In this document: piece by piece, positions 2,797 through 19,497 of the stretch
Layout of the letters: each line of letters begins with the position of its first letter
How positions within the stretch are numbered: position 1 is the first letter of the stretch
UHGV virus genome: UHGV-0127427
Reading direction: 5' to 3' (one strand)
DNA: 19,497 nucleotides
DNA from: a virus
Made by a program: the position numbers and the translations under genes
The notes under the pieces: generated by a model
Seen by the model: the letters and a program-made list of their open reading frames with translations, nothing else
Told to the model about the DNA's origin: nothing
The model's database searches: none

Positions 2797-3041
2797 AAAA
2801 GCGATACTACACAGTAAAGCATGGGACGCTACGAGCATTACAAGAGTTTGCTGACAAGCATAACGTTGAGGTGCGCAGGGAAGGGGGAAGTAAAGCTCTG
2901 CGCATGTACCGTCCGGACGGGAAATGGCGGACGGTCGTCGATTTCAAAACAAACAGCGTTCCCCAGGGCGTCCGCGACCGGGCATTCGAAGAATGGGAGC
3001 AGATCATCATAGATAATGCTCTGCTACTAAATGCTGACTGA
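2793..3041 (+). CDS. lxc: Lxc/Bof-like C1 co-repressor, 82 aa, TTG start
   Basis: 82-aa ORF (the size I recall for P1 Bof/Lxc) beginning with TTG 6 nt downstream of GGAGA, overlapping the upstream stop (TTGA); no in-frame ATG until codon 38. Confidence 0.6.
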   Translation: MKKRYYTVKHGTLRALQEFADKHNVEVRREGGSKALRMYRPDGKWRTVVDFKTNSVPQGVRDRAFEEWEQIIIDNALLLNAD

Positions 3042-3300
3042 GTTTAATATTACAATATTATCTGGGAGATAAATGCATCTTATTTCCCAGATGATAACTG
3101 ATGTTTTACATATTCACATGGTGTACAATTATAATACTGCCTAAATAGGCACACAAAGTACGATATGCTACTAAAACCACAACTTTTTGATACTTGTTTG
3201 AGGGGGCGGGTTTGCTTTAGTAATTTAATAGCAAAAGCCATTCGTGTATCAAGTAATAACTTACTGAAGGAGGTGTTTTCTAATAAGAGTTTTTTCTTTA

Positions 3301-3801
3301 TTAAACTCTCACTATGTATAGATAATCAGTTAAGTCTCTTAGTTTCCAATGTTTAGATACATCTGAAAGAAATATGCTGCGTACTTTCCCTGAGAAAGTA
3401 GGCATACCAGACTTAAGAAAAGCTCTAAGGTTGTCAACATCACTAAAAATTGAAAGTAATGAAAAAGTTAAAGCATCCTTAAAATCAGGATGTATATGAT
3501 TCTGGTCACTTATATTATCGATCATCCTGATTAATAAATCAGGATAAGCAAAAGACTTTTTTAGCAAATGTGGGCATTTATCCAGAAGTTGCTTCCCTTG
3601 GTGATTGTGACAAGATAAATAGTTTCTTACAGCACTATCATTAAGTTCGAATTCGATATATTTATCTGAATAGGTTTGTAAGAATTCGCGTTCAGAATGT
3701 TTAAGCAACAGCACATCACCATAATTTAATATTAAGAAATCCTTAAGAAATTGAAAATTTATCGGTTTCTTTATAAGGATGAAGTAACAGACTCCTGACA
3801 T
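3301..3801 (-). CDS. hypothetical protein, orphan gene in the AT-rich island (start ATG 3801 preferred; ORF extends to ATG 3813)
   Basis: 166-170 aa ORF in strongly AT-rich DNA; GGTGG lies 5 nt upstream of ATG 3801; no motif recognised. Confidence 0.4.
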   Translation of the reverse strand: MSGVCYFILIKKPINFQFLKDFLILNYGDVLLLKHSEREFLQTYSDKYIEFELNDSAVRNYLSCHNHQGKQLLDKCPHLLKKSFAYPDLLIRMIDNISDQNHIHPDFKDALTFSLLSIFSDVDNLRAFLKSGMPTFSGKVRSIFLSDVSKHWKLRDLTDYLYIVRV

Positions 3802-4035
3802 AGCTACCACCATTCTAAAGAGGCTTTGAACAAGAATAGAGATACAGCAGCACTGAAATCAAGAAGTTGTGCAAAAAATAAAAATATTGATTTGTGTCAT
3901 AGTTGCTGCTTTTTATTATTTAATTTTTATCAATTTCACTACAGATAAATAAATTGACATAGTGTGTAACCCCTGTAAATATAAAGGGCACTTTATCTGC
4001 TAAAGCCAACCAATTTAAAAATAGAGGGTGGGAGC

Positions 4036-4726
4036 ATGGAAGTTATCTACATAGTAGAACCAATCATTTCCACAAGCACTAACAAGTTGATAGCAGTGGA
4101 AGTGTTGAGCAGATTTTATTCCAACGAGGGGGGCTATTCTTTCTACTCAGAAAGTATTAGGTATGTTTACAAGCAAGATGAAGATTAACTTGCTAAAATC
4201 TCAACTTAACACAATAATCAAATATAAGTATTTTTTTGAATGCCATAATATATTATGCTCTATCAATGTAGATTATGATACCTGTTTATATATATATGGC
4301 AATAAACAAATTCAAGAACTACTAATAAACAATAAATTTATAGCGATTGAGATATCAGAAAACTATCCTGATTTAAGCGATGAGGATTACATCATATCCT
4401 TTCTACTGACTTTGACAGATAATGTTTGGCTTGATGATTTTGGAAGTGGTAACGCCACCATGAAAGCATTAATTAAAAATAAATATCATGCAATAAAACT
4501 TGATAAGTCATTTTTTCAAGAGCATATGATTAAGCCTCATTTTGATGTCATTATTAGCAATTTAAAAAAGTTATGTCCGAATATCATCGCTGAAGGCGTC
4601 GAAAACATTGATTGTCATAAGTTATCAAAAGGGATAGGGCTATGGGGCACTCAGGGATATTTTTTCCCATCAATTCCGCTGACGGAGATTGAGTCCATAG
4701 ATAGTAAGTGGCTATCAGATTTATGA
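4036..4726 (+). pseudogene. EAL-domain gene (degenerate EAL-only type) split by a frameshift: frame 1 4036-4188 (50 aa, EVL motif), frame 2 4163-4726 (187 aa)
   Basis: Frame 1 starts at ATG 4036 behind GAGGGTGGGAGC and encodes the EAL-type N-terminus (EPIISTSTNKLIAVEVLSRF). Frame 2 carries the remaining EAL signatures in canonical order: DDFGSGNATMKAL (DDFGTG), IKLDKSFF (KIDRSF), IAEGVE, QGYFFPSIP (QGYLFSRP). The two frames overlap around a G6 run at 4128-4133. Confidence 0.55.
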
Positions 4727-4779: not shown

Positions 4780-5232
4780 TTAAAAGATGTTATCCTTACC
4801 TGTTAATTTACCTTGAGGAACTTTAGTGAGCTCCATCCGATAAAATGCTTTTATCATATTTACAAATGGCTCATATGGTGAATATTCGTTGTCTTGTTTA
4901 GTAACGGTGTCTGTCATTGTCCTGATGTAGTCTGCGCTTACCACGTTGTTGTTTGCTTCAATTAGTACCGGCCTGCCGTTCATGAAGGGATCACGCAACC
5001 TTACACGCTGGCCAACTCGACCGGTAATAAAGCTGTTTTCCTCTTCCACCAGCACGATAAAACCCTTTTCCTCTTTTTCTCGCAATTCGCGCAGCAGCTG
5101 GAGTTCCATATCGCGGCGGCGTTCAGGGTAGCTGGTCCGCTCAGCCATTATCAGCTCATTGTTGATCCATGCAGCAGTCATTGACGCCGGTTTGCCGACG
5201 CTCATTGAAACAACGCATATTTTCTTATCCAT
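4780..5232 (-). CDS. mat: Mat-like protein (P1 mat position), 150 aa from ATG 5232
   Basis: ORF between ref and the island; ATG at 5232 preceded by GGGG; the track start at 5259 is a non-ATG upstream codon. Positional assignment. Confidence 0.45.
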   Translation of the reverse strand: MDKKICVVSMSVGKPASMTAAWINNELIMAERTSYPERRRDMELQLLRELREKEEKGFIVLVEEENSFITGRVGQRVRLRDPFMNGRPVLIEANNNVVSADYIRTMTDTVTKQDNEYSPYEPFVNMIKAFYRMELTKVPQGKLTGKDNIF

Positions 5233-5243
5233 AGCGCCCCTAC

Positions 5244-5269
5244 AAAAAAGAAAAGCCACCAGCGGCGGC
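5244..5269 (-). terminator. intrinsic terminator-like hairpin plus U-run downstream of ref, ending 11 nt upstream of the mat start
   Basis: Minus-strand sense GCCGCC-GCU-GGUGGC (6-bp stem including one G.U) followed by UUUUCUUUUUU. Confidence 0.45.
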
Positions 5270-5420
5270 TTAGCAATACAACTGAAGGTAGCGCCCGGTA
5301 CTCAGACTGTGCCGTCCATGGAATATTTGAAAGGGGATCCATCCGTACCGGGCATGTGATGATTCTGACTGAAGTCACTTGTCAGTTGTCAATCATTTAT
5401 CATTAAAAATAATATATTTA

Positions 5421-5981
5421 TTAGTGCATGATGTTTGCCATCTCATAGGCGTCAGCCAGTAACTCCATCTCTGACTTGTTCAGCAGGGTGAATTCTTTCT
5501 TGCCTCCAACCACACCATCGGCATGAACAGGGACCAGCCAGGGGTATTTTGCTCTTACTTCAGCCGGAGCTGCATGCTGGTGGTGCCATCTACAAAGAGG
5601 CAATTGCTTTTTATGACAACCCGGCGCGGTACGACCGGCGATATGGTGCAGAGACATCTCATTAGATATTACTCCATGCATATAGCAGGCAATGCAGGGG
5701 AGAGTGCCAAGAGCATTGGCGATGCGCCGTTCCTCCGCCGTTGGTGTTCTCCCCTTCAAGCCACGAGATTTTATTTTTACCGCGCTTTTCCGCGTTTTGC
5801 TGGCTGGTGGGCGCTCTTTCTGTTTAGCGATACGGCGGTCGAGAGTATCCCGCATTTTCTGATATTGAGATTCTCGCCAGACCGGATCAGCCAACTTCTC
5901 CCGTTGCCGAGCGATCGCTCGTTCTCTGGCTGCCTTCTGCCACTTGCGGCACTGTTCAATTTTTTGTTCGATTGTTTTCAT
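5421..5981 (-). CDS. ref: Ref, recombination enhancement function (HNH-family endonuclease), 186 aa
   Basis: 186-aa ORF starting MKTIEQKIEQCRKWQK with Cys/His-rich HNH core (CIACYMHG...HH...CHKKQLPLCRWHH); matches P1 Ref as I recall it; located between mat and cra/cre as in P1. Confidence 0.9.
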   Translation of the reverse strand: MKTIEQKIEQCRKWQKAARERAIARQREKLADPVWRESQYQKMRDTLDRRIAKQKERPPASKTRKSAVKIKSRGLKGRTPTAEERRIANALGTLPCIACYMHGVISNEMSLHHIAGRTAPGCHKKQLPLCRWHHQHAAPAEVRAKYPWLVPVHADGVVGGKKEFTLLNKSEMELLADAYEMANIMH

Positions 5982-6081: not shown

Positions 6082-6098
6082 CGATATATTAGAGCAAT
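6082..6098 (-). promoter_or_regulatory. C1 operator-like site (Op2-type) overlapping a candidate ref promoter
   Basis: Minus-strand sense ATTGCTCTAATATAT (14/17 to ATTGCTCTAATAAATTT) directly followed by CGC and a perfect TATAAT, about 90 bp upstream of ref. Confidence 0.65.
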
Positions 6099-6592: not shown

Positions 6593-7624
6593 CTAATCGC
6601 CATCTTCCAGAAGGCGCACCATTGCCCCTGTTTCACTATCCAGGTTACGGATATAGTTCATGACAATATTTACGTTGGTCCAGCCACCAGCTTGCATGAT
6701 CTCCGGTATTGAAACTCCGGCACGGGCCATATCTCGCGCGGCTCCGACACGGGCACTGTGTCCAGACCAGGCCAGGTACCTCTGGCCAGAGTCATCCTTA
6801 GCCCCGTAAATCAATCGGTGAGTTGCTTCAAAAATCCCTTCCAGGGCGCGAGTTGATAGCTGGCTGGTGGGTGATGGCGAGGCAACACCATTTTTTCTGA
6901 CCCGGCAAAACAAGTAGTTATTCGGATCATCAGCCACACCAGAGACAGAAATCCATCGTTCGACCAGTTTAGTTACCCCCAGGCTAAGTGCCTTCTCTAC
7001 ACCCGCGGTACTAACCAGAGTTTTCGTTCTGCCAATATGGATTAGCATTCTCCCACCGTCTGTACGTGAGATATCTTTAACCCTGATCCTGGCAATTTCG
7101 GCTATACGTAACAGGGTGTTATAAGCGATCCCCAGAAATGCCAGATTACGTATATCCTGGCAGCGATCGCTATTTTCCATGAGTGAACGAACCTGGTCGA
7201 AATCAGTGCGTTCGAACGCCAATGCCTGTTTTGCACGTTCACCGGCATCAACGTTTTCTTTTCGAATCCGCCGCATGACCAGTGAAACAGCATTGCTGTC
7301 ACTTGGTCGTGGCAGCCCGGACCGACGATGAAGCATGTTTAGCTGGCCCAAATGTTGCTGGATAGTTTTTACTGCCAGACCGCGCGCCTGAAGATATAGA
7401 AGATAATCGCGAACATCTTCAGGTTCTGCGGGAAACCACTTCCGGTTATTCAACTTGCACCATGCCGCCCACGACCGGCAAACGGACAGAAGCATTTTCC
7501 AGGTATGCTCAGAAAACGCCTGGCGATCCCTGAACATGTCCATCAGGTTCTTGCGAACCTCATCACTCGTTGCATCGACCGGTAATGCAGGCAAATTTTG
7601 GTGTACGGTCAGTAAATTGGACAT
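6593..7624 (-). CDS. cre: Cre site-specific tyrosine recombinase, 343 aa
   Basis: 343-aa ORF starting MSNLLTVHQNLPALPVDATSDEVRKNLMDMFRDRQAFSEHTWKMLLSVCRSWAAWCKLNNRKWFPAEPEDVRDYLLYLQARGLAVKTIQQHLGQLNMLHRRSGLPRPSDSNAVSLVMRRIRKENVDAGERAKQALAFERTDFDQVRSLMENSDRCQDIRNLAFLGIAYNTLLRIAEIARIRVKDISRTDGGRMLIHIGRTKTLVSTAGVEKALSLGVTKLVERWISVSGVADDPNNYLFCRVRKNGVASPSPTSQLSTRALEGIFEATHRLIYGAKDDSGQRYLAWSGHSARVGAARDMARAGVSIPEIMQAGGWTNVNIVMNYIRNLDSETGAMVRLLEDGD, near-identical to P1 Cre as recalled; loxP lies 419 bp upstream. Confidence 0.97.
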   Translation of the reverse strand: MSNLLTVHQNLPALPVDATSDEVRKNLMDMFRDRQAFSEHTWKMLLSVCRSWAAWCKLNNRKWFPAEPEDVRDYLLYLQARGLAVKTIQQHLGQLNMLHRRSGLPRPSDSNAVSLVMRRIRKENVDAGERAKQALAFERTDFDQVRSLMENSDRCQDIRNLAFLGIAYNTLLRIAEIARIRVKDISRTDGGRMLIHIGRTKTLVSTAGVEKALSLGVTKLVERWISVSGVADDPNNYLFCRVRKNGVASPSPTSQLSTRALEGIFEATHRLIYGAKDDSGQRYLAWSGHSARVGAARDMARAGVSIPEIMQAGGWTNVNIVMNYIRNLDSETGAMVRLLEDGD

Positions 7625-8119: not shown

Positions 8120-8136
8120 AGAATTATTAGAGCAAT
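8120..8136 (-). promoter_or_regulatory. C1 operator (Op99-type) in immC
   Basis: Minus-strand sense ATTGCTCTAATAATTCT (15/17). Confidence 0.6.
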
Positions 8137-8196: not shown

Positions 8197-8223
8197 TTGA
8201 CAATTGCTCTAATAAATTATAGT
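8197..8223 (+). promoter_or_regulatory. Candidate immC promoter with embedded C1 operator (TTGACA - operator - TATAGT)
   Basis: TTGACA 8197-8202, operator ATTGCTCTAATAAATTA 8203-8219 (16/17), TATAGT 8218-8223; upstream of coi-c1 on the same strand. Confidence 0.65.
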
Positions 8224-8457: not shown

Positions 8458-8667
8458 ATGGCTTTCATTCAACCAACCATCGACGACGTTAGACATTGCT
8501 CTAACGCTTTATCTGTAGACCCTGCCGAAACCGACGCTGCCAGCACCATTGCTGAACACTACTCAAAGATATCCAATCAGGACTACCGCATCACCCAAGA
8601 CGACCTGGATGACCTCACTGACACAATCGAATATCTCATGGCAACTAACCAGTTAGCCTCACAATAA
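8458..8667 (+). CDS. coi: Coi, C1 inactivator, 69 aa
   Basis: 69-aa acidic ORF directly upstream of c1 on the same strand (MAFIQPTIDDVRHCSNALSVD...); size and position match P1 Coi; GTGAGG 7 nt upstream of the ATG. Confidence 0.85.
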   Translation: MAFIQPTIDDVRHCSNALSVDPAETDAASTIAEHYSKISNQDYRITQDDLDDLTDTIEYLMATNQLASQ

Positions 8668-8777
8668 ATGCACTAATAAATCTATTATTTTTGTTTGATC
8701 CCTCTATAATATAGGTCAGTAATGACCGGTTTTCTCAACCGGGCGTTATTGACCATGTCAATTCTGGAGGAGGATCA

Positions 8778-9629
8778 ATGATAAATTATGTCTACGGCGA
8801 ACAACTGTACCAGGAGTTCGTCAGCTTCAGGGATCTCTTTCTAAAAAAAGCTGTTGCACGCGCCCAACACGTTGATGCCGCCAGCGACGGTCGTCCTGTT
8901 CGCCCGGTTGTCGTTCTGCCGTTCAAAGAAACGGACAGCATTCAGGCTGAAATTGATAAATGGACTTTAATGGCGCGGGAACTGGAACAGTACCCAGACC
9001 TCAATATCCCAAAGACTATTTTATATCCAGTGCCTAACATCCTTCGCGGTGTACGTAAGGTTACAACTTATCAGACAGAAGCTGTGAACAGCGTCAACAT
9101 GACCGCTGGCCGCATTATTCATCTGATTGATAAGGATATTCGCATCCAAAAAAGCGCGGGGTTCAATGAGCACAGTGCGAAATACATAGAGAACCTGGAA
9201 GCAACAAAAGAGCTAATGAAGCAGTACCCGGAGGATGAAAAATTCCGTATGCGCGTACACGGCTTTAGCGAAACAATGCTGCGCGTCCACTACATTTCCA
9301 GTAGCCCTAACTACAATGATGGTAAATCAGTTAGTTACCATGTGCCACTGTGTGGCGTGTTTATCTGCGATGAAACCCTCCGTGATGGAATCATCATCAA
9401 CGGTGAATTCGAGAAAGCAAAATTTAGCCTTTATGACTCCATAGAACCGATCATCTGCGACCGCTGGCCGCAGGCAAAAATATATCGCCTGGCAGATATT
9501 GAAAATGTAAAAAAACAAATTGCCATCACTCGCGAAGAGAAAAAGGTCAAATCAGCCGCATCAGTTACGCGCAGTCGTAAAACTAAGAAGGGGCAGCCAG
9601 TAAACGACAACCCCGAAAGCGCGCAATAA
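8778..9629 (+). CDS. c1: C1 repressor of lysis, 283 aa
   Basis: 283-aa ORF starting MINYVYGEQLYQEFVSFRDLF behind GGAGGAGG; matches P1 C1 in length and N-terminus as recalled; multiple cognate operators in the window. Confidence 0.95.
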   Translation: MINYVYGEQLYQEFVSFRDLFLKKAVARAQHVDAASDGRPVRPVVVLPFKETDSIQAEIDKWTLMARELEQYPDLNIPKTILYPVPNILRGVRKVTTYQTEAVNSVNMTAGRIIHLIDKDIRIQKSAGFNEHSAKYIENLEATKELMKQYPEDEKFRMRVHGFSETMLRVHYISSSPNYNDGKSVSYHVPLCGVFICDETLRDGIIINGEFEKAKFSLYDSIEPIICDRWPQAKIYRLADIENVKKQIAITREEKKVKSAASVTRSRKTKKGQPVNDNPESAQ

Positions 9630-9661: not shown

Positions 9662-10429
9662 TTATTCAGCCGCCACCGGTTTTAACAAGCCAGCATCGAG
9701 CAGTTTACGCGTCAACCACTGTTGTCCTTTCCCCGTTAATTGGGGCGTCAGCCGTATCTGGTAGCCATCTTCATCATCCAGCACCACTTCTTTCACTGTG
9801 AAATATCCGGCGTTTATGTACTGCTGGAACGGCACATTTTTACGCCCGCCGGACGCTATCAGAATGCCGTTCTCCCGTAACCAGGCAAACAGCGCGTTTT
9901 GCTTCAGCCCAACAACCTTTGCAAAATTACCAATCAGGATCCCCTTAGCCACTGATACACGGTCGGCAAAATCGACCTTGGGGGCTGCGGCCACCAGTTG
10001 TTGATTTAGCTGGTGGGCCTTCTGTTCCAGTAGCTGCTTTTGTTCAGCCAGCTCGGCAGCCAGGCGCAAGGCTTCAGGTAGTGTTTGGGGGATTGCGACC
10101 GGTTGCTGTTCTTTTTGCCGGAAGTAGCTGTCTTCCAGTTTTTCAAAGAATGCCCATGCTTCATCTGTGTTTACGATCTTAGACATGCGTGCCGCTCCGC
10201 GTTCGGCCCAAAGAATTACCTGGCTTGTATATTTGCTAACCAGGTGACTAGTAGTCACCAGCCTTTTAAATTCCTTTAATTTTGAACCAGTTAAGAGATA
10301 GTAATGCTTACCTTCTTCAAAGCGATCGGAGTTGCGAGACAAATTTTTACGAATATTAGCTTCATCGGTTCCATAAGCGCAGATAAACATCGCGCTTATC
10401 GACATCCAGATGCGGGTATTCCTTTTCAA
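9662..10429 (-). CDS. phage antirepressor-like protein (ORF6N-type N-terminal region plus KilA-C/ANT-type C-terminal region); start uncertain (TTG 10429 or ATG 10405)
   Basis: N-terminal half AYGTDEANIRKNLSRNSDRFEEGKHYYLLTGSKLKEF...ILWAERGAARMSK and C-terminal half DRVSVAKGILIGNFAKVVGLKQNALFAWLRENGILIASGGRKNVPFQQYINAGYF are typical of phage antirepressors; sits where P1 has pacB/pacA/lpa. Confidence 0.65.
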   Translation of the reverse strand: MKRNTRIWMSISAMFICAYGTDEANIRKNLSRNSDRFEEGKHYYLLTGSKLKEFKRLVTTSHLVSKYTSQVILWAERGAARMSKIVNTDEAWAFFEKLEDSYFRQKEQQPVAIPQTLPEALRLAAELAEQKQLLEQKAHQLNQQLVAAAPKVDFADRVSVAKGILIGNFAKVVGLKQNALFAWLRENGILIASGGRKNVPFQQYINAGYFTVKEVVLDDEDGYQIRLTPQLTGKGQQWLTRKLLDAGLLKPVAAE

Positions 10430-10556
10430 GAATTGCTGCGAGTTCTTTCGCTGATAGAAGAGATTTAGTGCGGATCATGTAATCCGCAATCTCGTACGAT
10501 GTTATTCGTGAGTGATTTATTTCCATGAAGTGGCGTCCCTGCCAGTTAAGTAACAT
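10362..10556 (-). CDS. hypothetical 64-aa protein overlapping the 5' end of the antirepressor-like gene in another frame
   Basis: ATG 10556 preceded by AGGTGA at 4-nt spacing; ends within the first codons of the antirepressor ORF; could be a real leader gene or the product of a frameshift. Confidence 0.35.
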   Translation of the reverse strand: MLLNWQGRHFMEINHSRITSYEIADYMIRTKSLLSAKELAAILEKEYPHLDVDKRDVYLRLWNR

Positions 10557-10626
10557 CCTGTCACCTACTGATTAGCCCATGTCAACTAATCAACGTCGAA
10601 TATAATACCCTCGATTAAAGAAATAG

Positions 10627-10643
10627 CAATACATTAGAGCAAT
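10627..10643 (-). promoter_or_regulatory. C1 operator-like site upstream of the 64-aa/antirepressor unit
   Basis: Minus-strand sense ATTGCTCTAATGTATTG (14/17) beginning 1 nt after the pdcB-like stop; TTGCTA-16 bp-TATTAT promoter-like hexamers overlap it. Confidence 0.55.
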
Positions 10644-10644
10644 T

Positions 10645-11691
10645 TTATCTAACGCTCGACGAATGACTTGTGATAGCGCCGACTCCAAGCGCGTAATCAA
10701 AGAACAATCGTTGATGCATCGCCAGCCTACCGTGCGTCTTCTCCCAATTATCGCGGTCACGCTCAATATCACGCTGGCATGACTGGCACAGAGGAATAGC
10801 ATAAATGTCATGCGCGCATAATCGACTATAACGAACGATATAAGGCGTAATGTGAGCGCCAGCTCCCGCCGCTCCACACCCACAGCATGGACGGGAAGCA
10901 ACAAAGTCCATGTACTCAGGTAATTTTAGCGATTGCAGTTTTGGTATTTTGAAATGCGCCATACCTGGGTCGGAGTCAACATCCACAGGGCATACTTTTG
11001 CACGCATCGGCGCGGCGCGTTCTTCCATCATCTGAACATATGCTGTAGCGCGATCGTCATACGGGCGAATATCCGCCTCTTTCAGTGGTCCGCTATCCTG
11101 CGGAGTAGCCTTCATCTTATTTATTATTGATATGCGGCAGACTTCTTCCGGCATCAGGTGCATCATGTTGCGCATGAAAGCCCACCAGCACAGCTCCTGA
11201 ATACTTAAATCATGGCTATTTGAAAGGCCCATTTCCTGACGGGCGACATCCAGTATCCAGTTAACGCGATTATTGTGCAGCGTTTCTTTCAGCTCATTAA
11301 AACCACGCATCCGGTAATGGTTATCGTGATGCCAGCACAACAACACCGCGCTATTGTCTCGTTCAGCGTGGACAATATGGTTGTCACACCAACTACGATC
11401 TGCGGCCTGGCATTGACCCTCTTTCCTACGCAACCACGCCACCAGCGCGTCAATTCCACCAATACGGCGAAACAGTTCATCGCTGTTAAAAAACGGCTGC
11501 AACGCCTCATTTGTTGCCATGGTTTGCTCGGTAACAACGAGGCCGTCTTCCATGTGCTCGATTAACTCACGCGGCACCGGCTCCATAATAAATTTACGGC
11601 CAGCCTCCACCAGCTTTCTGACCTCCTGATCCACTTTGAACGTGGCGAGGCCAAGCTCTTTCTGTACAAAGGGAGTAATTACGGCTTTCAC
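10645..11691 (-). CDS. pdcB: PdcB-like protein (post-doc gene B position), 348 aa, GTG start, Cys-rich C-terminal region
   Basis: GTG 11691 preceded by AAGGTG at 4 nt; C-terminal CCGCG...C..C..C..C cluster suggests metal binding; assignment by position downstream of doc. Confidence 0.5.
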
Positions 11692-11718
11692 ATCACACCT
11701 TTAATCACTGATTGGGCT

Positions 11719-11898
11719 TTATCTGCTGCCCGACATTATCTGTTTAAGCACAACCATTTCCTGACGGCATAACACAGCAATAGCGGTCCTGGCACCAATT
11801 TGCTTACTAACCAGGTATTGCTTTATCTTGCGGCGACTCACGCCATCAAGAAGCATCTTTAACGCTTCACGGGACAATTTGTTGTATTTGCGTGCCAT
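11719..11898 (-). CDS. pdcA: PdcA-like small protein, 59 aa from ATG 11898
   Basis: ATG 11898 lies 4 nt after the doc stop; the track start at 11919 would overlap doc. Positional assignment. Confidence 0.45.
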   Translation of the reverse strand: MARKYNKLSREALKMLLDGVSRRKIKQYLVSKQIGARTAIAVLCRQEMVVLKQIMSGSR

Positions 11899-11902
11899 TA
11901 AT

Positions 11903-12283
11903 CTACTCCGCAGAACCATACAATCTACGTAACGTGGCGGCGACAGAAGATACAGATATCTCGCCAGTCGCAGCGCCTACAGTAAGGTCTGCCAGTTCAG
12001 GTGAATCAAATACCTGCACCCCGTTACGGCGTAGAAATAGCAGCGCACTGTTTAGCGCGGTACGCTTATTGGCATCATTGAATATATGCCCTCTCGCTGT
12101 AGCCACCAGGTAGGTGGCGGAGACTTCGAAAAGGTCGGTGATCTCTTCGTAGGCAACTCTGGCCTGAACTCTCCCGATAATGGCCTCTGCCCTACCCGGA
12201 TCTGACATTCCCGGCAGGCCGCCGTAGCGGTTTATATTCGCATCATGAAGCGCAATAAGTTCTTCCGGTGATATATGCCTCAT
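11903..12283 (-). CDS. doc: Doc toxin (Fic-fold kinase) of the phd-doc addiction module, 126 aa
   Basis: 126-aa [50 protein letters not shown]...; start overlaps the phd stop by 1 nt (TAATG), as in P1. Confidence 0.95.
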
Positions 12284-12504
12284 TATCGGTTAACCAGTTC
12301 CTTGTTGGTGGAGTCCAGGGTGTCAAACAGGGATGCAAATTCAGCATCCAGCGCCGCTTTTTTGTAGGCTTCGAAAGTAGCCTTGCTGACAATTACTGCT
12401 GGCTCACGGCCTCTGCGGGTGATTTCAACCTCTTCCCCGGCTTCAACATTGTTGAGCACTTCAGAAAGGTTGCCGCGCGCGGTACGGAAGTTAATGGATT
12501 GCAT
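12283..12504 (-). CDS. phd: Phd antitoxin, 73 aa
   Basis: [73 protein letters not shown] from ATG 12504 (two codons inside the track's start); matches P1 Phd. Confidence 0.95.
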
Positions 12505-12684
12505 AAACACCTCGTGTACTCGTTATGTGTACACAATTATAAACTTCACAGGCATAAAGCACCAGCACTTTGCAGCTTAAATCACCGGACAATCATCAAA
12601 TTCCCCACTTCGGGCATCATTAATGACATGAGTGATCACACCAAACACAGCATTACTCCCCGTGCATCCATCGTCATCCACTGG

Positions 12685-12966
12685 TCACGCCTCTTTCTTC
12701 CCGGTGCTTAAATCCTCCAGGTGCTGGCGCGGATACTTTCGGTATCTCTTTATGCGATATTCACCCTCCATAGCGCACACAAGCAGCGAACCATCAACTG
12801 GAGTAAGCGAAGAATCAACCACCAGCAAAGCACCCTGCAATATTCCCTCACGGTGATGGCTATCAGCTGCCCGCATGAAGTAGGTTGCTGATGGATGTCT
12901 AATTATCTGCTGATCAAGAGAAATTCGGCTTTCAACATAATCCGCCGCAGGAGAAGGGAAACCCAT
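12685..12966 (-). CDS. humD: HumD, UmuD'-like translesion synthesis accessory protein, 93 aa
   Basis: ORF upstream of phd-doc on the same strand with a UmuD'-like C-terminal region; GAGGT before the ATG; LexA box 19 bp upstream. Confidence 0.8.
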   Translation of the reverse strand: MGFPSPAADYVESRISLDQQIIRHPSATYFMRAADSHHREGILQGALLVVDSSLTPVDGSLLVCAMEGEYRIKRYRKYPRQHLEDLSTGKKEA

Positions 12967-12984
12967 AGCGTTTTACCTCAAAAA

Positions 12985-13004
12985 TACTGTTTATCTATAC
13001 AGCA
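12985..13004. promoter_or_regulatory. LexA box (SOS operator) upstream of humD
   Basis: TACTGTTTATCTATACAGCA, i.e. CTGT-N8-ACAG with AT-rich core. Confidence 0.7.
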
Positions 13005-13140
13005 TACATTAAAGAAGCACCTTTGGTGCAAACGCGTTATGTACATCAACCACCGCTGATGATTTTTGTGCGCTTTGCTACTATTCATCACCGCGGGATC
13101 AGCGTAACCTCGTTGCCAATCAGTTAATAAGGAATTAGCT

Positions 13141-13725
13141 ATGCCTAATCGCATTCCTCTCGATCCTGTATTGCCCAAAAATTTTGACTGCACTCCTAAC
13201 GAGAAACGCTCTAAAGCTCAGCTGGACGCCTAGTGGGACCATCCATATGGGGTTACACAACCTGACGGGAAAATTGTAGTTTATTGTCTGAATGGTGGGG
13301 CGTGGGACCGTCCATCCGTGCTTTGTTTGGCAGATAACTATGATGAAGCCTGTGAACTTGCCGAAAGACAGCAGGCAAGCTGGGTAAAAACACGGTCTGA
13401 ACCGACATTCATGTTTTCAAAAGAACCGCCATTTATACTGGCGAGGATGCCGCAGCGACCGGATCATCAACAAGAAATTGTTGCTGAATTTTCCTCAAGG
13501 GATGAGATGAATCTCTTCTCATTAAAGCAGGAAGAAAGGGATCGCGTCGAAGTGTCTCCAACTCTCGACCACAACCGGATGAACCTGGCCCAGCTCGCCT
13601 GGTACAGCAAAGAATTAGAGATGTCTATTGCCCGGCTTGAAAACGAAAAAGCCGCTATCCAAGTCCAGCACGAAGTAGTTCTGAACCGGATTAGAGAAAT
13701 GCAAAACGATAACAGGGGATTTTGA
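13141..13725 (+). pseudogene. hypothetical gene interrupted by an in-frame amber codon (30 codons, TAG at 13231-13233, then 164 more codons in the same frame)
   Basis: ATG 13141 has a good RBS (AAGGA, 8-nt spacing). The frame has a single TAG and continues open to 13725; the only in-frame restart (GTG 13318) lacks an RBS. Confidence 0.45.
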
Positions 13726-14082
13726 ATGGCTAAAATCGAGTACCATCGCGATCGCGGTAATTACCTGGAAATATACGATCATGAATCTCTTAACGATATC
13801 AACGATGCGTTATATGAATACTGTGAAAAAACGAGCATCACAGATGCACCTGATGCATTTGTCGAGCTGCCGGTATATCTCCGCGACATCTATGCAATAC
13901 GAACACCGCCCGTATCGGTGATTCACATTGGCTATGTCCGCCTGTCCATCGAAGAAGATGAAGATCGTTATATCGTGCGCCACTATACATTGGACAGAAA
14001 AGAACTTCCTAATGAATGGAACATGAGTAATTTCTACAACGGTGAATATGGCTTAAAATCCGCTAATAATTTACGGTCATAA
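13726..14082 (+). CDS. hypothetical protein, 118 aa
   Basis: ATG overlaps the upstream stop (TGAATG) with AGGGGA 9 nt upstream; acidic protein, no recognised motif. Confidence 0.5.
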   Translation: MAKIEYHRDRGNYLEIYDHESLNDINDALYEYCEKTSITDAPDAFVELPVYLRDIYAIRTPPVSVIHIGYVRLSIEEDEDRYIVRHYTLDRKELPNEWNMSNFYNGEYGLKSANNLRS

Positions 14083-14618
14083 TCTATACAGGCATGTATA
14101 ACAACAACGAGCCTATTAGCTGTCAACAACGTTATTTCCTCAAATAAGAAAAAGCAGAAAACAAATTGTTTAAGGTCACAAATTGTGGCCTTGATGGAGG
14201 AGGGAGGCTTATTGGCTATGGCTAAAAATCAAATTAGACACTTCATGTTGCTGTAGCTCATCAAGATCCGAGGCCACAAAACCTTTTCCGAAAAACTTCA
14301 CAAGTAACTCACTAGCCGCATCATTGTCACCTATTACACGAAAGTCATACGGCAACGTCGCAAGTTGACGATGTAATCCTGCTGAGAAAGTCGAATCTAA
14401 CAGCGCCCAGAATTCCCACCGCAGGATAATACTCGCCTCTTAATACTGTATATATGTTGTTACGATATGTTTTTCTGTCTCTAAAAAAAGATGTTTGAAG
14501 GGGATAAAAATATACAATTCCAACAAACGTTATTTTTAACAATTTTTTTCTTTGCGTTGACTTTCCCGGACACCTTGTCTGACCGAAGGTGCGCGAAAGC
14601 CACTTTTTCCTTCCTGAG

Positions 14619-14639
14619 TTATCCACAAAGTTATGCACT
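14619..14639 (+). promoter_or_regulatory. two tandem DnaA-box-like 9-mers
   Basis: TTATCCACA (14619-14627, perfect consensus) and TTATGCACT (14631-14639, 8/9) in direct orientation, 3 bp apart, inside an AT-rich non-coding stretch. Confidence 0.4.
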
Positions 14640-14927
14640 TGCAAGAGGGCCATTTTCTACATATTGTGGTGGCTAACAGATGAAATGAATGTAGATTAAT
14701 TGAAGATAAGGAGAAAATTTGAGATGCAATCATGACGTTAATAGATAGGGTCTGCATTACAGACCCCACCCGCATCAAGGAATTAGCCGTTCCCTGATGT
14801 TTTTCCGAAAACATGTGCCGTAAGCTCACGTTAACGACTTTCATTCACCGAATCCAACTATATAGGGGTTGGGTTTCTACGTCAACGTGAGCAAGTGCAC
14901 CTTTACATTTGACAAGGAACCACCTGA

Positions 14928-15065
14928 ATGAACGCTTTTTTTCAGTTCCTGAGTGCATTTTTAGATGCGCCTATTATTAGCCAGATTCTGGCTATTATCC
15001 TCATCATCGTTTTGATTTTGCTTTTAAGGTCAGTAAAAAATGGAATTATGCACTGGCTTACTTAA
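14928..15065 (+). CDS. small hydrophobic peptide, 45 aa (single predicted transmembrane helix)
   Basis: MNAFFQFLSAFLDAPIISQILAIILIIVLILLLRSVKNGIMHWLT; AAGGAA 8 nt upstream of the ATG; a perfect 9-bp inverted repeat overlaps the stop codon. Confidence 0.3.
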   Translation: MNAFFQFLSAFLDAPIISQILAIILIIVLILLLRSVKNGIMHWLT

Positions 15066-15140
15066 TGTTTCAGTGAAACATTAAAATCTCCTTGATGTGG
15101 AAACAATCATTTTCTGTATGTGCTGGTGGGCACCTGTAGT

Positions 15141-15503
15141 TCAGCTTTCGTTGGCATTTAACTTCGTCTTTGCTTTCTCCACCAGCAACTTCCAGATGCC
15201 TATTTCATTAGCAGCCGCCTTGATGGCGGCATAAAAAGCATCTTGCTGATCGTAACGCTGGATCTGTTTTTTCAGTTTTGCCTCCACCAATTTAATTTCA
15301 TTACGTGCTTTCTGAAGCCGCATCACCGCCCGGTTACGTCTGTTCTTGTATAGCGTGTTAATCTCTGACAATTGCTTTAATTTACCAGCCTGACTGCGGA
15401 TTATCGCCTCCCTGGCTTCTGCCGTGCGTCTCATCTGATCTCTTAAGAGTTCACCGTTTTCGATAATTCTTTCAAGGTGTTTGATGTGATCTGCAACTCT
15501 CAT
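15141..15503 (-). CDS. hypothetical coiled-coil protein, 120 aa
   Basis: ORF whose start overlaps the upstream gene's stop (ATGA); heptad-rich, charged sequence. Confidence 0.5.
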   Translation of the reverse strand: MRVADHIKHLERIIENGELLRDQMRRTAEAREAIIRSQAGKLKQLSEINTLYKNRRNRAVMRLQKARNEIKLVEAKLKKQIQRYDQQDAFYAAIKAAANEIGIWKLLVEKAKTKLNANES

Positions 15504-16381
15504 ACTTCACCCTCGCTTGTATCACCAGCGTCCACCAACGACAATAAAGCCCTGGCCATCTTATGAACCAACAGTGCATCAATAATGCCAAGCGTATGCC
15601 CCGGCTTAATGTTTAATGCTGCCTCAAGATGACACCTTTCCAGACCGCTTTTCTCGGCTTGTTTATGATGATATGGCGTAATAACGTCGCCCAAAACACG
15701 GCTAATTCTTTCTCGTAATTGCTGGGTGCCAGCACACTTGATCGCTGTATCGTGGAGACGGTTAACCAGTTCGCGATAAACATGCGGCTTAATGCGGATA
15801 CGTTCACCGGTGACGCCCTTTCCTGGCGTAGGCACCGAACTATCCGGAATATCCGGATAGTTGCCAGCCAGTCTACGCAAAACAGCCTTAATTGCATCAA
15901 TACGGTCATCATCAACTTTTTCTACAATATTGGAATTTAAATACTTCGAAGCCTTGCTATGCCAATCGCTGGTTTTAGGGTCTTGTCCATCCATCAAACG
16001 CCAAGCTTCAGCGATTAACTCATAGCCAGTAACAGTGGCTTCCTGCGCATCACCAATCAGTTGTGTGATCTCTCTTTCAAGCATGCTTAGAGCGTTAGGC
16101 ATTGGTTTTTCTTCCGGTACTACTGGAACGGGGGGAGCGGCGTAGACCTCAATAATTCCATTATCAATAGGCCATTCTCCATCCTTGAGGTAGTCACTTG
16201 TGCCGTCAACTTGCTGTTCTGCAATGTGGAATGCACCTATTGGTTTTGCTTCCAGTGATGCCAGAGCAATTCGTGCCAGTTCTTCCGCTTCTTCTGCTGG
16301 CAGTACAACGTTGCTACCAGGTCCGTATGTTTCGCGCCACTGCTTGATTGTCAGTAGTCGCTCTTTGGTAATAGTGGTCAT
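15500..16381 (-). CDS. hypothetical protein, 293 aa
   Basis: ATG 16381 preceded by AGGAAA at 7 nt; no motif recognised. Confidence 0.55.
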   Translation of the reverse strand: MTTITKERLLTIKQWRETYGPGSNVVLPAEEAEELARIALASLEAKPIGAFHIAEQQVDGTSDYLKDGEWPIDNGIIEVYAAPPVPVVPEEKPMPNALSMLEREITQLIGDAQEATVTGYELIAEAWRLMDGQDPKTSDWHSKASKYLNSNIVEKVDDDRIDAIKAVLRRLAGNYPDIPDSSVPTPGKGVTGERIRIKPHVYRELVNRLHDTAIKCAGTQQLRERISRVLGDVITPYHHKQAEKSGLERCHLEAALNIKPGHTLGIIDALLVHKMARALLSLVDAGDTSEGEV

Positions 16382-16465
16382 GCCGCGTTTCCTTCTTTCT
16401 TATTAACAATTACACCGTCATATATTTCATTAAGGTGGCGAACAACAAGAAACTGATTTCCGACT

Positions 16466-16603
16466 TCACGGACTTCGTTGCTTTCCAGTTCTGCTATCCA
16501 TAAAAATGAAATGGACGCTAACGCCAGCTTTTCGCTGTGCTTCCATCAGATGAACGAGATAAGCCGATGTTCGTCCACCTGAAAAGCTGACGACTTGATG
16601 CAT
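16466..16603 (-). pseudogene. 5' remnant of a PP-loop (PAPS-reductase-like) gene, 45 codons then stop
   Basis: Encodes MHQVVSFSGGRTSAYLVHLM... carrying the SGGxxS PP-loop signature, but terminates after 45 codons; the remainder of such a ~250-aa domain is absent. Confidence 0.4.
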
Positions 16604-16612
16604 ACTCACGGT

Positions 16613-17191
16613 TTATTCCTGAATGCGCTTAAACTCGATTACCCATACCAACGGGTTAGATAGCCAGTTATCCTGCCCGTAAATACTGCGCCAGATATCA
16701 CCAAAACCAACGCGATAAACAGCTTCAGATGGCGTAATCTTGTACGTCGCCGGAGTTGCGCCTTCTGCTTTAGCATCTTCCTCGCTCATGTCATGCAGCC
16801 GTTCCACACGCACGTCGGTAATTTCCAAAAGAATGCGCGATGCCCAGCGCGGCATGTGAATTGATGGCGTCCACTTTTCTGATACTGGTTTATTACAAAC
16901 CTCGACCGGAACCCGGTGCGTTTGTTCTGTCCAGGAGTTACGCACGCTTGCGCGATAAACCAGCGTTGCGACGTCCGTCGCTTTGCCATGTACCCGGTAG
17001 GTTTCGCGAACCCAAATACGATCGCCCGGTTGACCATATGGACAATGCTTGGCAAGCAACTCTGCGGCCACTGCCCGTCCATAGAATTTTTCTTCAACAA
17101 TCCTGCGAGTCTGTGTTTTATTCCCGCCAAGAATTGCCCGGACCATCTCATCGTTAAAAATCATGCCGCGCTCTTTCACTTCGCCTTTCAT
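16613..17191 (-). CDS. hypothetical protein with ASCH/PUA-like N-terminal motif, 192 aa
   Basis: N-terminal MIFNDEMVRAILGGNKTQTRRI resembles the ASCH-domain GxKxxExR signature; AGGGGGA precedes the ATG at 17191. Confidence 0.45.
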   Translation of the reverse strand: MKGEVKERGMIFNDEMVRAILGGNKTQTRRIVEEKFYGRAVAAELLAKHCPYGQPGDRIWVRETYRVHGKATDVATLVYRASVRNSWTEQTHRVPVEVCNKPVSEKWTPSIHMPRWASRILLEITDVRVERLHDMSEEDAKAEGATPATYKITPSEAVYRVGFGDIWRSIYGQDNWLSNPLVWVIEFKRIQE

Positions 17192-17200
17192 GCATCCCCC

Positions 17201-17287
17201 TTACCCATGTGCGACGATGCCGCCAAAAGTGATAGAGAACAGCCAGAAATAGATCGCGGCCATAATGATTTTGAATGCCGTGTTCAT
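17201..17287 (-). CDS. small hydrophobic peptide, 28 aa, translationally coupled to the downstream ASCH-like gene
   Basis: MNTAFKIIMAAIYFWLFSITFGGIVAHG; CAGGAG 8 nt upstream of the ATG; its stop overlaps the RBS of the next gene. Confidence 0.3.
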   Translation of the reverse strand: MNTAFKIIMAAIYFWLFSITFGGIVAHG

Positions 17288-17315
17288 ATTTTCAGCTCCT
17301 GTGATTGATTGGATA

Positions 17316-17346
17316 CATGCCGCGCCTTGCGGCATGTTTTTATTTT
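17316..17346 (+). terminator. plus-strand terminator-like hairpin (CAUGCCGC-GCCUU-GCGGCAUG followed by UUUUUAUUUU)
   Basis: 8-bp stem, 5-nt loop, T-rich tail on the plus strand, 4 nt after the GATTGATTGG motif; both flanking genes are on the minus strand. Confidence 0.4.
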
Positions 17347-17369
17347 CACTTTCTCTGTTTTAAAAATCA

Positions 17370-17386
17370 TTATTTATTAGAGCAAT
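17370..17386 (-). promoter_or_regulatory. C1 operator-like site upstream of the small-peptide/ASCH unit
   Basis: Minus-strand sense ATTGCTCTAATAAATAA (15/17), overlapping the stop of the HAD-like gene. Confidence 0.6.
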
Positions 17387-17892
17387 TATTGTTGATGGAG
17401 AAGCGCGTTTTCATACTCCCTGACCATTAACGTAAGCACGCCGTGCCTCCTGAAAACACGCGCCACTTCAATCTTATCTTCCAGCGCGAACGCAATTTTG
17501 CTTAGACCAATTTTCTTAAGGAGATCAATCTTTGCTGGACCGTCATTTCTGTCATCGGTGGCGGGACGCATAGATAGCAAAGGCTCTGCCCCATTTGTTA
17601 CGTGCTTACGCAACCAGGCTCGTGTTTTATCCCTGGCTATCTCACAGCGCCCGGTTACAAACCAGAGCGTGTAAATGCTGGACAACTGGCGCACCATATC
17701 AATAACTGGAGTGATGGAAGCATCAGTGTCACAGGCAAGGTTAAACTCGTTCCAGTGCTCTGTTAATGCACCGTTGCCAGGCGGTGGAAGTAAATGCAGC
17801 CTGTCTTCCGTTGCCTCCGATATCGTTCCATCAATATCTACTATGACAATGTACGGACGTTCCTGGTGTGCGTGTTTATTGAAAATACTCAA
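17386..17892 (-). CDS. HAD-superfamily phosphatase-like protein, 168 aa, TTG start
   Basis: HAD motif I DxDGT in IVIVDIDGTISEA; TTG start preceded by GAGGAGG at 4 nt; no ATG alternative nearby. Confidence 0.55.
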   Translation of the reverse strand: MSIFNKHAHQERPYIVIVDIDGTISEATEDRLHLLPPPGNGALTEHWNEFNLACDTDASITPVIDMVRQLSSIYTLWFVTGRCEIARDKTRAWLRKHVTNGAEPLLSMRPATDDRNDGPAKIDLLKKIGLSKIAFALEDKIEVARVFRRHGVLTLMVREYENALLHQQ

Positions 17893-17911
17893 ATGCCCTC
17901 CTCATTGGACG

Positions 17912-17942
17912 AAAAAAATGCTGGTGGGCGCACTCCACCAGC
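17912..17942 (-). terminator. intrinsic terminator downstream of the 420-aa gene
   Basis: Minus-strand sense GCUGGUGG-AGUGCGC-CCACCAGC followed by AUUUUUUU. Confidence 0.5.
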
Positions 17943-17964
17943 ATTAAAAGTGACACTGTAACTA

Positions 17965-19227
17965 TCAGCGAACGTAAATAGTGCCGCCGTTCACTTTTTC
18001 CCATGCATCGCTAAGTGCATAGCAAACATCAAGAAGTCTTCTTGCCGCTGTTTCCTCTAAACCCAATTCGACAACCAACTGCTCATGACGGCGGGTAACC
18101 ACATCAAACAGGGTATGCAGCCCTTTAGCTGCCAGATCATCAATAAATTCCGGTTCGAACGGCAGCTCTGCATCTGCCAACATAACCTCTTGCGCCCACT
18201 CAACTCGACGGACCAGTTCCGGGCGGCGGCTTTCCATCTCTTTACAGATCAATTCATGGAAGAACTCTACCCAACCTTCCGGCTGGAACTCGCGGAAAAT
18301 TGCCAACGGCTGGAAGTTTGGCATCAACCATTCGTTGATTCGGATATCAATGGCATAGCCCATGTCGCAGCAGAACTGATAAGCAAAGTCCAGCTTAGAA
18401 ACGATATAAGGACGCTCGTTATTGAACTCTTTAGGCGATGAGATCCCATAAGCCAGGAGGCGCGGGAAGAATGAGATTTGCCCTAACGTCGGATGGAGTT
18501 TGCTTGCAGGAAAACGGCGCTCAGTAATGCCATACATTTCCTTCTTGAGCGTCGCAAATTTAGCATTTTCATTAACCAGCGCGGTAACCTCTGCTTTTTT
18601 ATTAGCAAATGCCACGCGCGCTTCGCTTGCATCTTTAATAGTTTTTTTGAGCTGTTGGTTAAGATCGGCGACCTGCTTACGCAGTTCCTGTCGCTCGCTT
18701 TTAGCTTTGTTATAGCGTTTCTCAAGGTTAAAAGGATCAAGTTTCATGATCTCTTTATATTGAGATTTTAGCGTTGAAATCTGTGAGTTCCGCAGTTCAA
18801 CCATCGCGGTCATTTCATTGAGTTTTGTTTCCAGCTCAATGCTTATACGTTCGGCATTATCAGCACGCTGGTTGGCGTCATGCGTCGCATCGTCGATCGC
18901 GTCCTGTTGCTGGCGTTTCAAATGTTCAATTTGCAGCTGAAGCTCTTCAATTTCTTTACCCTTCAGACCGAGATCCAACTGCATATTTTCAGCTGCATCT
19001 ACCAGGGAGTTATGGCTATCAGCTTCTGCGTTATAAACATCAATAAGCTGTGCGTGAAGCATCTCCGCTGACTGAACCGCATTATCAAAAAAACGCGCTG
19101 TGAGGTCATCACAACTAACGCGGCGTTGCGCGGCCCGGATGTTCTGGATAATGGCCGGGATACCGGCATTCAGGACGTCAGGGATAGATACATTTTCGAT
19201 TGATTGGTTTTGTGCTGAAGTGCTCAT
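17965..19227 (-). CDS. hypothetical protein, 420 aa, long central coiled coil plus globular C-terminal region
   Basis: ATG 19227 lies 1 nt after the upstream 72-aa ORF stop; central ~200 aa are heptad-rich (E/K/Q/L); no catalytic motif recognised. Confidence 0.55.
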   Translation of the reverse strand: MSTSAQNQSIENVSIPDVLNAGIPAIIQNIRAAQRRVSCDDLTARFFDNAVQSAEMLHAQLIDVYNAEADSHNSLVDAAENMQLDLGLKGKEIEELQLQIEHLKRQQQDAIDDATHDANQRADNAERISIELETKLNEMTAMVELRNSQISTLKSQYKEIMKLDPFNLEKRYNKAKSERQELRKQVADLNQQLKKTIKDASEARVAFANKKAEVTALVNENAKFATLKKEMYGITERRFPASKLHPTLGQISFFPRLLAYGISSPKEFNNERPYIVSKLDFAYQFCCDMGYAIDIRINEWLMPNFQPLAIFREFQPEGWVEFFHELICKEMESRRPELVRRVEWAQEVMLADAELPFEPEFIDDLAAKGLHTLFDVVTRRHEQLVVELGLEETAARRLLDVCYALSDAWEKVNGGTIYVR

Positions 19228-19228
19228 T

Positions 19229-19447
19229 TCAAAGTTCCGTATTAGCTTGTGCTTCGGTCATTTTTCCTAAGTATGAAGGAGGAAGGACTACGCAATTTGT
19301 ATCCAGTCCCTCACCTATGGCAGCCTGTAAAATTCTGGCTAAGGTGAGTCTCTTGTTGCGATACCTGGTGATGACATGCCTGATACCGCCGGTCGGCGTA
19401 ACAAAGGCGATCAGCCAGTAGTGATATTTCCGTCGGAATGGCCACAT
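19229..19447 (-). CDS. hypothetical protein, 72 aa
   Basis: ATG 19447 preceded by AAGGTG at 4 nt; coupled to the 420-aa gene. Confidence 0.4.
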   Translation of the reverse strand: MWPFRRKYHYWLIAFVTPTGGIRHVITRYRNKRLTLARILQAAIGEGLDTNCVVLPPSYLGKMTEAQANTEL

Positions 19448-19461
19448 AGTGCACCTTGTAG

Positions 19462-19478
19462 ATTGTTCTAATAAAAAA
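19462..19478. promoter_or_regulatory. C1 operator-like site upstream of the 72-aa/420-aa unit
   Basis: ATTGTTCTAATAAAAAA (13/17) about 15 bp upstream of the 72-aa gene start. Confidence 0.4.
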
Positions 19479-19497
19479 CGTTATGAGTGTACATCAC

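Follow-up and report, generated by a model that had tools for sequence, protein, structure and literature searches.

Positions 16382-16612 of the window, by which is meant the whole 19,497-nucleotide stretch of UHGV virus genome UHGV-0127427 analysed here, are very probably a non-functional scar left by two deletions in a putatively C1-controlled accessory operon that comprises pap, an ASCH-like gene and then pmgV. Both junctions, the homologies of the pieces that they join and an intermediate state were observed directly, and the gene decay is ordinary pseudogenisation of a common and dispensable phage accessory gene, with no new element involved.

The operon and its replicon

The best phage match of the window, Salmonella phage SJ46, covers 82% of it at 97.5% identity, and the window belongs to a phage-plasmid of the P1-like type (Punavirus, SJ46-like). 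All of the genes around the 231-base interval are carried on the minus strand. After pmgS (19227-17965) and pap (17892-17386) comes a 17-mer resembling the C1-repressor operator, ATTGCTCTAATAAATAA (17370-17386, minus strand), which stands at the head of the operon, matches P1 Op88 at 15 of its 17 bases and corresponds to P1 Op88/OpmgT; in the P1 annotation, OpmgT and PpmgT likewise lie directly after pap. From this homology we infer that the operon is under C1 control through the operator-like site. Between pap and the ASCH-like gene there is a hydrophobic 44-codon ORF (17201-17335, minus strand) with no PHROG match; pJIE250_3 has a 135-bp hypothetical CDS at the equivalent position. The intact ASCH-like gene (16613-17191), the interval itself, an intact EaA/Upf89.5-like gene of 293 codons (15500-16381) and a pmgV homologue (15503-15141) then follow, all on the minus strand.

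Four more operator-like 17-mers are present in the window (6082-6098, 8120-8136, 8203-8219 and 8667-8683), each with one or two mismatches to P1 Op88. They span the region from 6082 to c1 (8778-9629), three of the four lying between cre (7624-6593) and c1, as is expected of a P1 immunity region. Elsewhere, a 187-aa ORF on the plus strand (4163-4726) shows a partial EAL-domain match (profile positions 113-233 of 236, E = 4.5e-11) and may be a truncated cyclic-di-GMP phosphodiesterase gene carried as cargo; a gene for a Ref-like RecA-dependent nuclease (5981-5421) adjoins it. The three promoter-like and four terminator-like sites predicted in 15000-17600 did not rise above shuffled controls, and the edge at 16382 is overlapped by one weak promoter-like and one weak terminator-like site, both on the plus strand.

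A truncated NinC-like gene and the two junctions

The initial annotation had described an ORF directly after the ASCH-like gene that stops at 45 codons, with some 85 bp behind it open only in other frames, and had taken it for the decayed remnant of a PP-loop gene of the PAPS-reductase-like kind. The length was exact: the ORF, MHQVVSFSGGRTSAYLVHLMEAQRKAGVSVHFIFMDSRTGKQRSP, runs on the minus strand from the ATG at 16603 to the TGA at 16466-16468 (16466-16603 with its stop) and is a pseudogene made up of 36 NinC-like codons and nine codons derived out of frame from an Ea22-like gene. Beyond its stop, 84 nt lead to the ATG at 16381 of the 293-aa gene, with several stops in the frame of the ORF and only the +1 frame open; this much agrees with the description, but the stretch is not featureless, since it holds scraps of two other genes.

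The first part of the ORF, segment A (16495-16603, minus strand), consists of codons 1-36 of a 290-aa lambda NinC-like gene of the PAPS-reductase family, including the SGGRTS PP-loop, and here, as in intact plasmid copies, these codons directly follow the ASCH-like gene. P1-like plasmids in which an intact 873-bp gene for a ‘phosphoadenosine phosphosulfate reductase family protein’ starts 10 nt after the same ASCH-like gene are 98.6-98.7% identical to the window over 17499-16495. Within segment A the intact plasmid genes, including that of pSE18-SA00377-0-P2, show one mismatch in 109 nt (108/109 identical), which gives A28V, and the DNA homology to the intact gene breaks off sharply at 16495. 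Residues 1-36 of the ORF match PHROG 424 (PAPS reductase) at E = 3.6e-8, which makes the ORF a member of that family by descent, and a motif of the form SGGxD/TS is present as SFSGGRTS at residues 6-13, the same in intact homologues. Near-identity thus extends over all 36 of the retained codons, well past the short motif, and on these sequence grounds the PP-loop resemblance is homology and not a chance motif; the central reading of the initial annotation, a decayed PP-loop gene, is supported.

A Pfam search of the 45-aa product at E <= 0.01 gave no match, PF01507 (PAPS_reduct) included, because the product is too short, so that the homology was settled by PHROGs and DNA identity. The intact 290-aa homologue, for its part, matches PF01507 at E = 1.4e-9 and 38.7 bits (cut-off 22.5). 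Against a complete PAPS_reduct domain of about 175 profile positions above the gathering threshold, the ORF has 36 homologous residues left, and it falls far short of a full-length NinC-like ORF (~285-290 aa) with C-terminal cysteine motifs. Unlike the intact protein, the window lacks 254 of the 290 codons, including most of the nucleotide-binding domain and the CVFC and CSESC motifs. The 45-aa product should be inactive, as it would keep the phosphate-binding loop alone, with the rest of the domain and the cysteine motifs among the residues that are gone. The remnant is a relic by descent and no functional member of the family.

The origin of the remaining pieces became clear when the window was aligned to the intact reference plasmid pSE18-SA00377-0-P2, in which the order is pap, the ASCH-like gene, the PAPS-reductase-family gene (290 aa), a 67-aa gene, a 79-aa gene and an Ea22-like gene (191 aa), and then a 171-aa gene and a DUF551/EaA-type gene. 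The window falls into three collinear blocks, with 17499-16495 corresponding to 1051-2055 of the plasmid (98.7% identity), 16497-16436 to 3563-3624 (100%) and 16437-16247 to 4281-4471 (97.9%). Against this plasmid, junction 1 is a 1,510-bp deletion with 3 bp of microhomology (ATA) and junction 2 a 658-bp deletion with 2 bp of microhomology (CA), both sizes being relative to the closest intact relatives and not to the exact ancestor. Taken together, the two deletions also removed two small genes and nearly all of the Ea22-like gene and the 171-aa gene.

Segment B (16436-16497, minus strand), the middle block, is a 62-nt internal piece of an ead/Ea22-like gene, in the frame of which it reads IAELESNEVREVGNQFLVVR, and shares ATA with segment A and CA with segment C. 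It is 100% identical to 3001-3062 of pJIE250_3 as well as to 3563-3624 of the reference plasmid, and the pJIE250_3 CDS around the match belongs to Pfam Ead_Ea22 (E = 7e-38); the truncated ORF reads segment B out of frame for its last nine codons and stop. Segment C (16378-16437, minus strand) is the 3' end of a 171-aa Upf89.0-like gene, 19 codons and the stop, and this tail, HLNEIYDGVIVNKKEGNAA with its stop, is identical to the C-terminus of P7 Upf89.0. From 16437 onward the window is 98-99% identical at the nucleotide level to P7 and many lambdoid phages, and over 16437-15000 it is 99.7% identical to pJIE250_3, including the annotated 882-bp CDS of the latter; with the pSE18-SA00377-0-P2 version, the 293-aa gene shares the first ~135 nt and no more. 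For the 293-aa gene, segment C still provides the GAAGGA ribosome-binding site and the ATGA start overlap, and expression of this gene is probably unaffected because the ribosome-binding site is its own.

Two other records carry junction 1, and both are at least 99.9% identical to the window over the shared sequence. The IMG/VR contig IMGVR_UViG_2778261693_000004, which is 99.9% identical to window 9665-19497, represents the intermediate, as it has junction 1 but has lost neither the Ea22-like sequence beyond it nor the 171-aa gene, which is intact (6965-7480), and the window is shorter than this contig by exactly 658 bp at 16436/16437. The E. coli plasmid pMTY9803_untypable1 (NZ_CP135674.1; RS166_RS30970, RS166_RS30365) has the identical junction 1 and the identical 45-codon ORF, and retains the rest of the Ea22-like gene and a 171-aa gene split by an ISVsa5 insertion, whereas the window has lost 658 bp there. 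Window 16612-16436 is byte-identical in both. In part the decay was already known, in that PGAP calls the identical sequence in this sister plasmid a pseudogene (‘phosphoadenosine phosphosulfate reductase domain-containing protein, incomplete, missing C-terminus’); the Ea22 piece is likewise annotated there as a pseudogene (‘ead/Ea22-like family protein, missing N-terminus’).

A succession of two events would account for these states. The ancestral order would have been that of pSE18-SA00377-0-P2, ending in a variable gene of the EaA/DUF551 family. An illegitimate 1,510-bp deletion across ATA would then have joined NinC-like codon 36, out of frame, to the Ea22-like gene near its codon 106, giving rise to the 45-codon ORF. 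A subsequent 658-bp deletion across CA would have taken the Ea22-like gene beyond segment B as well as codons 1-152 of the 171-aa gene, leaving the last 19 codons of the latter together with the Shine-Dalgarno sequence and start overlap of the 293-aa gene. Transcription from the presumed C1-controlled promoter should still cross the scar, and the ribosome-binding site of the 293-aa gene should still serve its translation. An IS-mediated adjacent deletion was also considered for junction 2, as the ISVsa5 copy of pMTY9803 lies inside the deleted interval; no support was found for it, because the IMG/VR contig is an IS-free intermediate and there is no IS end at the junction in the window.

Exact-pattern scans for junction 2 gave no match in IMG/VR, JGI metagenome contigs or GTDB genomes, and junction 1, scanned for in the same way, turned up in a single IMG/VR contig and was absent from the GTDB genomes and JGI metagenomes. 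A 401-bp probe at >=80% coverage was found in none of the 50,697 phage records of INPHARED, the 72,556 plasmids of PLSDB or 5,426 complete E. coli genomes. That junction 2 is unique to the window across every collection searched, and that the window has a second private deletion relative to the near-identical IMG/VR contig (251 bp at 10374/10375), is what might be expected of a sequencing or assembly artefact, the real molecule having an intact gene or at least the 658 bp absent at junction 2. Such an artefact is nevertheless very unlikely. Junction 1 is identical in an independently assembled complete plasmid and in the IMG/VR contig, and it follows from this recurrence that the PP-loop gene is truly truncated in the lineage, while the mere 2 bp of homology that flank junction 2 leave a repeat-collapse misassembly without a substrate. 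Clean deletions at 2-3 bp of microhomology are typical of real illegitimate recombination.

The same records bear on whether the 45-codon ORF might be a retained small gene for a PP-loop mini-protein that, for example, interferes with PP-loop enzymes of the host, which is slightly less probable still than an artefact. The ORF does keep the native ATG and the upstream context of the intact gene inside a transcribed operon, and it is identical in three records, but those three are one lineage with shared sequence at least 99.9% identical, junction 1 is missing from the GTDB and JGI collections and an index of 153 billion genes contains neither the exact 45-aa product nor the 47-aa one. Its last nine residues are an out-of-frame reading of Ea22-like sequence, PGAP treats the ORF as a pseudogene, and the ~175-residue PAPS_reduct fold, to which Pfam gave no match, cannot form from 36 residues. 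Diverged related phages were not found to keep the short ORF, the other carriers being the two near-identical records, one of them annotated as a pseudogene.

Least credible of all, to the point of being almost negligible, is a +1 ribosomal frameshift that would join the PP-loop N-terminus to the open +1 frame across segments B and C in a chimera of ~75 aa. The Ea22 scrap and the Upf89.0 tail are in fact mutually in frame, and this frame is open from ~16552 to the stop at 16378-16380; a random deletion would, however, place B and C in frame one time in three. Because junction 2 is unique, the chimera is without any counterpart, and in the IMG/VR contig and pMTY9803 the same frame runs into the Ea22 C-terminus. 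An Rfam scan of the whole window matched zero families, so that neither a recoding element nor any other RNA family speaks for frameshifting. The interval is best read as a scar of two deletions.

The Ea22-like and 171-aa genes that were lost offer some observations of their own. The C-terminal ~88 codons of this Ea22-like allele (pJIE250_3 2996-3261) also occur behind an unrelated N-terminus in E. fergusonii pEF-4 (2501-2766), and two Salmonella records match the allele from the same point. This module boundary is just 5 nt upstream of junction 1, which may be a coincidence or may mark a recombination-prone linker. The 171-aa Upf89.0-like gene is intact in the IMG/VR contig, split by ISVsa5 in pMTY9803 (3666-3836 and 5157-5519) and deleted in the window, and so was inactivated twice independently within one lineage. 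By eye it has a PD...ExK nuclease-like motif (EQPDAMGF...CLIEAKC); Pfam gave no match, and the PHROG families matched are of unknown function.

The ASCH-like gene and the NinC-like family

The initial annotation had further proposed that the ASCH-like and PP-loop genes form a functional pair with a role in nucleic-acid modification, and that the pair as such had decayed. The decay holds for the PP-loop gene and stems from two microhomology deletions rather than from point or frameshift erosion; the ASCH-like gene is intact. Its 192-aa product is orthologous to P7 Upf86.8 and to the N-terminal portion of P1 PmgT, with 99% amino acid identity and the same length in pCFSAN058545_02, 84% identity in P7 and pJIE250_3 and 43% identity to P1 PmgT. 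It matches PHROG 874 at E = 1e-83, and PGAP names the orthologue ‘ASCH domain-containing protein’; the Pfam ASCH match on the protein itself is below threshold (E = 0.011, 16.9 bits, cut-off 21.2).

The idea of a pair was not supported by a comparison with other loci. P1, P7 and pJIE250_3 have the ASCH-like gene without a NinC-like neighbour, and lambda, Oslo, Ss-VASD and Klebsiella phage SBP have the NinC-like gene without the ASCH-like one; a tblastn search with the ASCH-like protein found nothing in the fetched flanks of the NinC-like genes of Ss-VASD, Oslo and SBP. The comparison was a small one, of five ASCH-like and five NinC-like loci, and within it independent phage lineages did not share the two genes as neighbours. 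What recurs beside NinC-like genes in nin regions is a DNA methyltransferase gene or NinB. Because each occurs without the other, the ASCH-like and NinC-like genes look like independently assorting cassettes and not a dedicated two-gene system. A literature search on ASCH, PAPS reductase and phage, and on pmgT, found no functional work.

The intact family (Pfam PF01507, PHROG 424; e.g., WP_143202210.1 and WP_032145259.1) is found in P1-like plasmids, Stx phages and lambdoid nin regions. Copies in the ea region of Stx and Shigella lambdoid phages share 95% identity with the intact protein, and the lambda-type NinC shares 79%, as represented by lambda record KT232076 and by gp65 of phage Oslo, the annotation of which notes a similarity to lambda NinC. 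The identity is 51% for a Klebsiella phage protein and 33-55% for many proteins of Vibrio phages, among them one annotated as a Dam methyltransferase fusion. Of the 5,426 complete E. coli genomes, 547 have a match to the gene and 423 have one at >=80% coverage, and the matches are mostly chromosomal. A finer identity than PAPS-reductase family or NinC-like was considered and dropped, as NCBIfam gave sub-threshold matches alone (CysH, DndC, TilS and PRK13795-type), far below the cut-offs; a PDB sequence search returned marginal matches to PAPS/APS reductases at residues 4-65 (E = 0.007-0.015). The methyltransferase associations make a nucleic-acid-related role for the NinC family plausible.

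Loss of the NinC-like gene is evidently tolerated, since CRISPRi found ninC to be non-essential in lambda after relief of polarity on Q, and likewise pmgT, pmgU and pmgV in P1 (PMC10695390). Truncations independent of that in the window occur in other settings. The Stx2a phages LC727854.1, LC727866.1 and LC727872.1 keep NinC-like residues 237-289 alone, and in E. coli NZ_CP054227.1 and NZ_CP054363.1 one truncated chromosomal copy starts at nt 108 and the other keeps nt 766-873 alone, beside an Ea22-like gene.

Decay of a P1-derived lineage

In P1 itself, pmgT and pmgU occupy the same locus behind the same C1 operator as in the window, and pmgT begins with the same ASCH-like gene; P1 (NC_005856.1) 3210-4279 corresponds to window 17191-16613 plus 15869-15500. 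In P1 pmgT the ASCH-like gene runs out of frame into the 3' part of an EaA/Upf89.5-like gene, and pmgU is made up of the in-frame C-terminal 111 codons of that gene, the part to which the C-terminal 111 codons of the 293-aa gene correspond. Given this composition, the P1 reference also looks like a deletion scar at this point. Unlike the window, P1 is devoid of NinC-like, Ea22-like and Upf89.0-like sequence, and the identity of its ASCH-like allele is only 43%.

Losses in this lineage extend beyond the accessory operon. Of the 140 codons of lpa, the late-promoter activator gene, the first ~51-56 are left. In the IMG/VR contig and pMTY9803 the gene breaks off near codon 56 and continues in frame into ant, an ORF6N/KilAC antirepressor gene (the antirepressor being 381 aa, WP_001653129.1; IMG/VR contig 619-1143 and pMTY9803 53317-54462). 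In the window the lpa homology ends at about codon 51 (remnant ~10374-10530), where the private 251-bp deletion at 10374/10375, with 2 bp of microhomology relative to the IMG/VR contig (712-960), removes the Lpa'-Ant fusion junction and breaks the fusion, leaving an N-terminally truncated ORF6N/KilAC antirepressor ORF (9662-10429, minus strand). No pacA or pacB was detected by BLAST in the window or the IMG/VR contig, and in pMTY9803 ant lies directly between a DUF968 gene and c1; the lineage has neither pac gene at the usual site. Only 61 kb in length, pMTY9803 contains several IS and Tn elements. The lineage probably represents a defective plasmid derived from P1, and the NinC-like remnant, the truncated lpa and the absence of pacA and pacB from their usual site together suggest that the P1 derivative from which the window comes is decaying into a plain plasmid.

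Whether such losses are neutral or selected is a separate question, and selection is the unlikely answer, although the double inactivation of the 171-aa gene and the recurrent NinC-like truncations in Stx phages and E. coli chromosomes are the reasons for raising it. Early-operon accessory genes that are costly, or that trigger host defence, would in that case be purged during plasmid domestication, and, if true, such genes would burden a plasmid-resident P1 derivative that is no longer lytic or set off the defences of its host.

The scar matters little by itself, and its 45-codon ORF is best annotated as a pseudogene and not as a small protein. What it provides is a stepwise loss that could be reconstructed, from the intact locus to junction 1 and then to junction 1 with either junction 2 or an IS insertion, and thus an example of accessory-gene loss by microhomology deletion in the lambdoid-like cassette region of P1-type phage-plasmids.
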